Sequence record: MN525560.1
Source: a phage
Direction: 5' to 3' (one strand)
Length of the DNA: 1,068 nucleotides
Part shown: one piece after another, positions 1 to 1,068 of the stretch
How the letters are laid out: each line of letters starts with the position of its first letter
Numbering within the stretch: position 1 is the first letter of the stretch
The notes under the pieces: generated by a model
Told to the model about the DNA's origin: nothing
The model's database searches: none
What the model saw: only the letters and a program-made list of their open reading frames with translations
Made by a program: the position numbers and the translations under genes

Positions 1-1068
1 ATGGAGAAAATTATTTTTACTAAAGATCTTGTTGCTAATTCTGCTGTTGTTGCTGATCAGTGGAAACATCTTACTATTGATCGTAAAGTTTTTTGCAATG
101 CTGAGGCTGAGCTTGCTAAAACTTATGGTGTTAATGCTACTGCTCTTGTTACTAAAGATTATTGGCGTGATGTTGATAATGTTACTACTCGTGTTTTTCG
201 TAATGAGGCTGGTCAGGATATGATGGCTGATCTTATGGGTATTGCTGCTAATATTAATATTGGTAAAACTGTTGCTATTTCTCGTATTGCTTCTGATGCT
301 GGTAAAGTTGTTCGTACTCTTTCTGGTCAGGAGCCTGAGGATCTTGATAAAACTCGTTATGATTATACTGGTGATGTTATTCCTATTTTTAAAACTGGTT
401 ATTCTCGTGAGTGGCGTGAGCTTCTTGGTATGCAGTCTGAGGGTTTTGATCCTCTTCTTGATGATCAGGCTAATGTTACTTTTAATCTTCGTTCTGATAT
501 GGCTCAGTATCTTCTTACTGGTGATCAGACTCTTAATGTTAATGGTGTTTATACTGGTTATGGTATTACTAATCATCCTAATACTATTCAGGTTAATCTT
601 AATGCTTCTGGTGGTCTTAATATTGATCTTCAGACTGCTACTCCTGATGAGATTGTTACTTTTTTTAATCAGGATTTTCAGGCTATTCTTGATGCTCAGA
701 ATGTTTTTGAGCAGGTTACTCTTTGGGTTTCTCCTGCTGTTCGTCGTTCTTTTATGCGTCCTTATTCTGATGCTGCTGGTTTTAAAGGTGGTACTGTTGA
801 GCAGTATATTACTCAGTTTGGTAATGGTCGTATTGGTAAAATTGGTACTAATTTTCTTCTTACTGGTAATCATTTTGTTGGTTATGTTCGTAATGATATG
901 TATATTCGTCCTCGTGTTGCTCAGCCTGTTTCTACTTATGCTGCTGCTCGTGCTAATCCTCATGATAATTTTAATTTTCTTGTTTGGTCTGCTTTTGGTC
1001 TTCAGATTCGTAAAGATGCTACTGGTAAATCTCGTGTTTTTAATGGTTATGGTACTCAGACTCCTGTT
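1..1068 (+). CDS. Uncharacterised protein, 356 codons in frame +1 with no stop in the window (3'-partial or stop-stripped); recoded with one codon per amino acid. No family assigned; weak, unverified impression of a soluble beta-rich structural (e.g. virion/capsid-like) protein.
   Basis: Seen directly: ATG at 1-3 and 356 consecutive sense codons with no TAA/TAG/TGA in frame 1 through nt 1068; strict period-3 structure with one codon per amino acid. Translation: MEKIIFTKDLVANSAVVADQWKHLTIDRKVFCNAEAELAKTYGVNATALVTKDYWRDVDNVTTRVFRNEAGQDMMADLMGIAANINIGKTVAISRIASDAGKVVRTLSGQEPEDLDKTRYDYTGDVIPIFKTGYSREWRELLGMQSEGFDPLLDDQANVTFNLRSDMAQYLLTGDQTLNVNGVYTGYGITNHPNTIQVNLNASGGLNIDLQTATPDEIVTFFNQDFQAILDAQNVFEQVTLWVSPAVRRSFMRPYSDAAGFKGGTVEQYITQFGNGRIGKIGTNFLLTGNHFVGYVRNDMYIRPRVAQPVSTYAAARANPHDNFNFLVWSAFGLQIRKDATGKSRVFNGYGTQTPV. 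The protein has diverse, non-repetitive composition, unlike the Leu-rich off-frame ORF. The true start cannot be confirmed because there is no upstream sequence, and the product is unassigned because no search could be run. Confidence 0.85.
   Translation, partial: MEKIIFTKDLVANSAVVADQWKHLTIDRKVFCNAEAELAKTYGVNATALVTKDYWRDVDNVTTRVFRNEAGQDMMADLMGIAANINIGKTVAISRIASDAGKVVRTLSGQEPEDLDKTRYDYTGDVIPIFKTGYSREWRELLGMQSEGFDPLLDDQANVTFNLRSDMAQYLLTGDQTLNVNGVYTGYGITNHPNTIQVNLNASGGLNIDLQTATPDEIVTFFNQDFQAILDAQNVFEQVTLWVSPAVRRSFMRPYSDAAGFKGGTVEQYITQFGNGRIGKIGTNFLLTGNHFVGYVRNDMYIRPRVAQPVSTYAAARANPHDNFNFLVWSAFGLQIRKDATGKSRVFNGYGTQTPV

Follow-up and report, generated by a model that had tools for sequence, protein, structure and literature searches.

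One-codon-per-amino-acid DNA encoding the major capsid protein of Escherichia phage C1, probably a back-translation with phiX174 codon usage

The window, as we call the whole stretch of 1068 nucleotides analysed here, reads as one open frame from end to end, and every amino acid in that frame is spelled with a single codon. This raises the question of how such DNA came about, and how far its letters can be used to trace the organism behind it. The sequence-only reading had proposed a back-translated, synthetic or recoded sequence. We have followed this up by tabulating the codons, identifying the encoded protein and its native gene, and comparing the codon choice with natural usage tables and with simple software rules.

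One codon for each amino acid

Frame +1 (1–1068) comprises 356 codons with 0 stops and uses 20 distinct codons, one per amino acid. They are GCT for Ala (31 occurrences), CGT for Arg (20), AAT for Asn (26), GAT for Asp (26), TGC for Cys (1), CAG for Gln (18), GAG for Glu (12), GGT for Gly (29), CAT for His (4), ATT for Ile (20), CTT for Leu (24), AAA for Lys (14), ATG for Met (8), TTT for Phe (19), CCT for Pro (11), TCT for Ser (14), ACT for Thr (30), TGG for Trp (5), TAT for Tyr (14) and GTT for Val (30). The tabulation in frame 1 reproduces exactly the codon table that had been read from the sequence, and a search for any amino acid with a second codon in this frame found none. Cys is present once and is uninformative for the one-codon rule, its entry TGC resting on a single codon. 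The window opens with ATG and its last codon is the sense codon GTT; it carries no terminal stop codon, ribosome binding site (RBS), tag or cloning flank. T makes up 83.7% of the third codon positions, and the overall GC content is 36.5%.

The probability that all of the degenerate codons (343/343) are the chosen ones was calculated for several natural usages. The log10 P is −83 to −92 with phiX174 usage, −85 with M13, −132 with G4, −149 with phage C1 and about −160 with E. coli, and the full span over every natural usage tested is −83 to −164. Chance is excluded as the source of the one-codon pattern.

The opposite strand is also open over its full length (Table 1). This frame is open because the codon table lacks TCA, CTA and TTA, the sense codons that give in-register antisense stops; any ORF caller would take it for a long antisense ORF. 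Frame +2 of the window contains a single stop. Intrinsic-terminator-like hairpins with T-rich tails occur four times on the plus strand (Table 1), compared with 0.7 ± 0.8 expected from shuffles; this surplus is, in our reading, an artefact that the T-ending codons (TTT, CTT, GTT) of a synthetic ORF produce. Promoter-like sites are at chance level (3 found, 3.1 expected). The window is unfit for analysis at the nucleotide level because the codon table manufactures all such signals; the analyses affected are those of composition, skew, promoters, terminators, antisense ORFs and codon adaptation.

The encoded protein and its native gene

A tblastn search of 50,697 phage records with the encoded protein retrieved the coat or major capsid protein of Escherichia phage C1 (YP_010054303.1, genus Deseoctovirus), with 356/356 residues identical (100%). 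The RefSeq label of this C1 protein is merely 'virion structural protein'. Phage C1 is a dsDNA siphophage of 46.7 kb. Escherichia phage S192 (ON239132.1) encodes the identical protein of 356 aa, and about 150 further phages of Escherichia, Salmonella, Klebsiella and Shigella encode relatives at 95–99% protein identity. The encoded protein is already known, being identical to a deposited phage protein. The advice that the analysis be done at the protein level proved sound, as the protein search retrieves the exact source at 100% identity.

The native C1 gene and the window have identical translations of 356 aa; the native gene, however, draws on 49 codons at 52.6% GC and closes with a TAA stop, as compared to 20 codons, 36.5% GC and no stop in the window. 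The two differ at 226/1068 nucleotides (78.8% identity). These differences are split into 218 at codon position 3, five at position 1 and three at position 2, with those at positions 1 and 2 confined to the six-fold codons of Leu, Arg and Ser. Whole codons are the same in 138/356 cases. Divergence that is silent only is exactly the pattern expected of a protein string converted back into DNA.

Table 1. Positions of features in the window and of the native genes in the phage C1 genome
Feature	Position	Strand	Remarks
Probable back-translated CDS of the phage C1 / S192 major capsid protein	window 1–1068	+	356 codons, ATG, no stop; complete
Full-length antisense open frame	window 1–1068	−	356 codons, 0 stops, 20 distinct codons; not a gene
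N-terminal arm	window 1–117	+	codons 1–39; probably removed in head maturation, as inferred from Sf11
Cluster of differences from Sf11 gp39	window 64–132		residues 22–44
DUF6260 domain, mature HK97-fold capsid body	window 133–1044	+	codons 45–348; Pfam PF19774, phrog_771 and PDB matches
Terminator-like hairpin	window 404–420	+	T-rich tail
Terminator-like hairpin	window 439–454	+	T-rich tail
Terminator-like hairpin	window 693–713	+	T-rich tail
Terminator-like hairpin	window 756–773	+	T-rich tail
tblastn match in phage C1	MH717097.1 / NC_054651.1 19329–20396	−	356/356 residues
Native C1 capsid gene	NC_054651.1 19326–20396		ends GTG TAA
C1 gp30, 'hypothetical protein'	NC_054651.1 20866–22278 (= L001 4119–5531)		YP_010054305.1; 470 aa
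C1 gp51, 'portal protein'	NC_054651.1 29946–31358		470 aa

The recoded DNA was looked for in six collections, with the synthetic-construct and patent divisions lying outside this scope, and none of the six yielded a natural copy. Megablast of the window gave no match when run against the phage records, 5,426 complete genomes of E. coli and 72,556 plasmids, and exact patterns of 50–60 nt from window positions 241–300 were absent from IMG/VR viral, JGI metagenome and GTDB genome contigs. Near-identical natural DNA, which would have spoken against an artificial origin, was likewise not found in the collections searched. With the protein natural (100%), 226 silent nucleotide changes and no natural DNA copy found, the proposal of a back-translated, synthetic or recoded sequence stands.

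The result of a more sensitive blastn search (word 11) was different. About 205 native homologues were recovered at 78–79% identity (E = 0, about 900 bits); the matches are strong since the window retains 138 of the 356 whole codons as well as codon positions 1 and 2. The expectation of no significant native match by nucleotide BLAST is therefore borne out for megablast and fails for sensitive blastn. Nor is nucleotide homology wholly uninformative on the source, as had been held, since blastn recovers the right phage group; the ranking within that group is nevertheless unreliable. In the phage collection, the true source, C1 (78.9%, 911 bits), scores below Salmonella virus VSt472 (79.3%, 923 bits). 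Among otherwise enterobacterial matches there is also a phage labelled Acinetobacter, vB_AbaM_AB4P2 (78.7%), which is an odd host label here.

Origin of the codon choice

The top codons of phiX174 (NC_001422) are the window codons for 17/18 degenerate amino acids strictly, with Cys tied and 0 mismatches. The phiX174 usage was tabulated under three sets of coding sequences with the same result in each, the Cys tie being 13:13 or 15:15. The probability that a random one-codon table coincides with a given one is 3e-9. The other T-rich ssDNA coliphages were rejected as the origin of the table, M13 matching at 15/18 (failing at Glu, Leu and Cys) and G4 at 10/18 (with two further ties). The source phage C1 (8/18, with one further tie) and E. 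coli, represented by a K-12 genome sample (8/18) and by ribosomal-protein and EF genes (8/18), were rejected as well. The phiX174 usage table is the best-supported origin of the codon choice, as judged from the match among the handful of tables tested; the top codons could be the same in another genome, for example that of a further phiX-like microvirus. EMBOSS ships a phiX174 codon-usage table. The window resembles the output of most-frequent-codon back-translation (as by EMBOSS backtranseq) in having one fixed codon per amino acid, no stop and no flanks. A literature search returned no paper or tool using the phiX174 table for back-translation, only unrelated vaccine-design papers.

We consider it highly probable (about 0.96) that the window was produced artificially, by back-translating the phage C1 capsid protein record with one fixed codon per amino acid by means of the phiX174 table. 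The starting material would have been a protein string, the 356-residue major capsid protein of phage C1 (identical in S192). Each residue would have been replaced with the most frequent phiX174 codon, with the Cys tie settled as TGC. The conversion was presumably made in silico rather than by gene synthesis. The absence of a stop codon and of flanks is as expected of a converted protein string. All of the nucleotide-level features (36.5% GC, 84% T in third positions, the antisense frame and the terminator-like hairpins) would then be non-biological.

A back-translator with a frequency-blind software default, such as Biopython CodonTable.back_table, is an improbable source. We tried Biopython back_table, alphabetical first and last, TCAG first and last, lowest and highest GC, and most-T. 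Biopython back_table (alphabetical last) reproduces 15/18 degenerate choices, as most of these are T-ending, but is wrong at Lys (AAA in the window, AAG by the rule), Leu (CTT, TTG) and Cys (TGC, TGT), whereas the phiX174 table has no mismatch. The seven other ordering rules reach 15/18 or fewer, so that each of these eight simple rules mismatches at least three amino acids.

We regard it as very unlikely that the window is a physically synthesised capsid gene, deliberately recoded on a one amino acid–one codon design. Assigning a single codon to each amino acid is a known approach in gene design, and the purposes of a recoded gene would be a trans-complementation or anti-recombination copy, escape from nucleic-acid-targeting defence, or a codon-usage experiment. 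The window is a complete ORF from ATG, and its 78.8% identity to the native gene, with silent changes spread throughout, would suit the blocking of recombination. Against such a gene, the codons are not host-preferred (8/18 match E. coli genome-wide or highly expressed usage), CTT for Leu is a poor E. coli codon, stop, RBS, tag and cloning flank are all lacking, and the plasmid collection searched contained no such construct. A Deseoctovirus capsid gene physically built with phiX174-style codons, for the study of effects of codon usage or nucleic-acid-targeting defence, has the same slim prospects. An expression construct codon-optimised for E. coli was rejected; its codons for Leu (CTT), Pro (CCT), Thr (ACT), Ile (ATT) and other amino acids are not those that E. 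coli prefers, and the window stops at the sense codon GTT with neither a stop codon nor flanks.

A natural gene of extreme codon bias, for example from a T-rich ssDNA phage or a highly expressed gene, has a negligible probability: phiX174 and M13 do favour the same T-ending codons, but drawing the top codon 343 times has P of 10^-83 to 10^-92 even with phiX174 or M13 usage, the identical protein belongs to a dsDNA siphophage (46.7 kb) that natively encodes it with 49 codons, and the DNA copy is absent from every collection searched.

On the back-translation reading, the window is an encoding artefact around a known capsid protein; it is useful as a quality-control flag and of little biological interest. 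A back-translated sequence of this kind can be traced, with sensitive blastn leading to the phage group, a protein search to the exact source, and the codon table to the reference usage table.

The capsid protein and its native neighbourhood

The protein itself holds nothing biologically new; an orthologue with 96% identity already has a cryo-EM structure. Residues 45–348 match Pfam PF19774 (DUF6260) with E 1.4e-112 and 376.1 bits (cut-off 26.6), covering positions 1–300 of the 301 in the profile. The match to phrog_771 ('head and packaging / virion structural protein') has E 4e-134, and the NCBIfam search gave no family match. Among solved structures, 9ocb_A ('Major capsid protein gp39') matches best, with E 2.7e-232, and 5wk1_A comes next (1.5e-25). 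By its 96.3% identity to the solved chain 9ocb_A, the window protein is predicted to have the HK97-like fold. Pfam still calls PF19774 a domain of unknown function, despite two solved capsid members, TW1 (5WK1) and Sf11 (9OCB).

PDB 9OCB is the capsid of the Shigella siphophage Sf11, and its authors describe a classical HK97-like fold (PMC12724387). In the T=7 shell of Sf11, gp39 is present in 415 copies, and gp40, a beta-tulip decoration protein, sits as trimers at the threefold positions (PMC12724387). The cryo-EM model of gp39 comprises residues 46–355, virion mass spectrometry covers residues 40–356, and the N-arm is probably cleaved (PMC12724387). Sf11 gp39 has the same length as the window protein but comes from another phage and host, and 13/355 residues differ (96.3% identity). 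Eight of the 13 substitutions fall at residues 22–44, in the N-arm, and five lie in the mature body (residues 46–355). The clustering at residues 22–44 is consistent with relaxed constraint on a discarded segment. By analogy with Sf11, the protein in the natural phage probably loses about 39 N-terminal residues and then builds a T=7 head together with a decoration protein in trimers.

The major capsid protein of the marine Pseudoalteromonas phage TW1 (5WK1) belongs to the same family and aligns with residues 37–346 (E 1.5e-25), but is a distant relative, and the alignment is gapped around residues 180–240. The TW1 decoration protein is the closest structural equivalent of that of Sf11 (PMC12724387).

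The pair of capsid and decoration proteins seen in Sf11 is also present in phage C1, where the gene for the decoration protein (phrog_766, 4e-51) directly precedes the capsid gene, its end lying 2 nt upstream. The native capsid gene sits in a head-morphogenesis cluster, a result that holds for the native C1 gene, the window itself having no genomic context. The portal, head morphogenesis and large terminase genes are located elsewhere in the C1 genome. The gene for gp30 immediately precedes those for the decoration and capsid proteins. The gp30 protein matches phrog_760 (9e-145, unknown function), and towards its C terminus it gives a marginal match to the head maturation protease phrog_3017 (8e-4). 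It might be the scaffold or the protease behind removal of the N-arm. A Pfam search of four native neighbours, gp30 among them, gave no matches. The head region of C1 contains two different genes of exactly 1413 nt (470 aa), gp30 and gp51, the first labelled 'hypothetical' and the second 'portal protein'; the portal of Sf11 is also listed as 470 residues.
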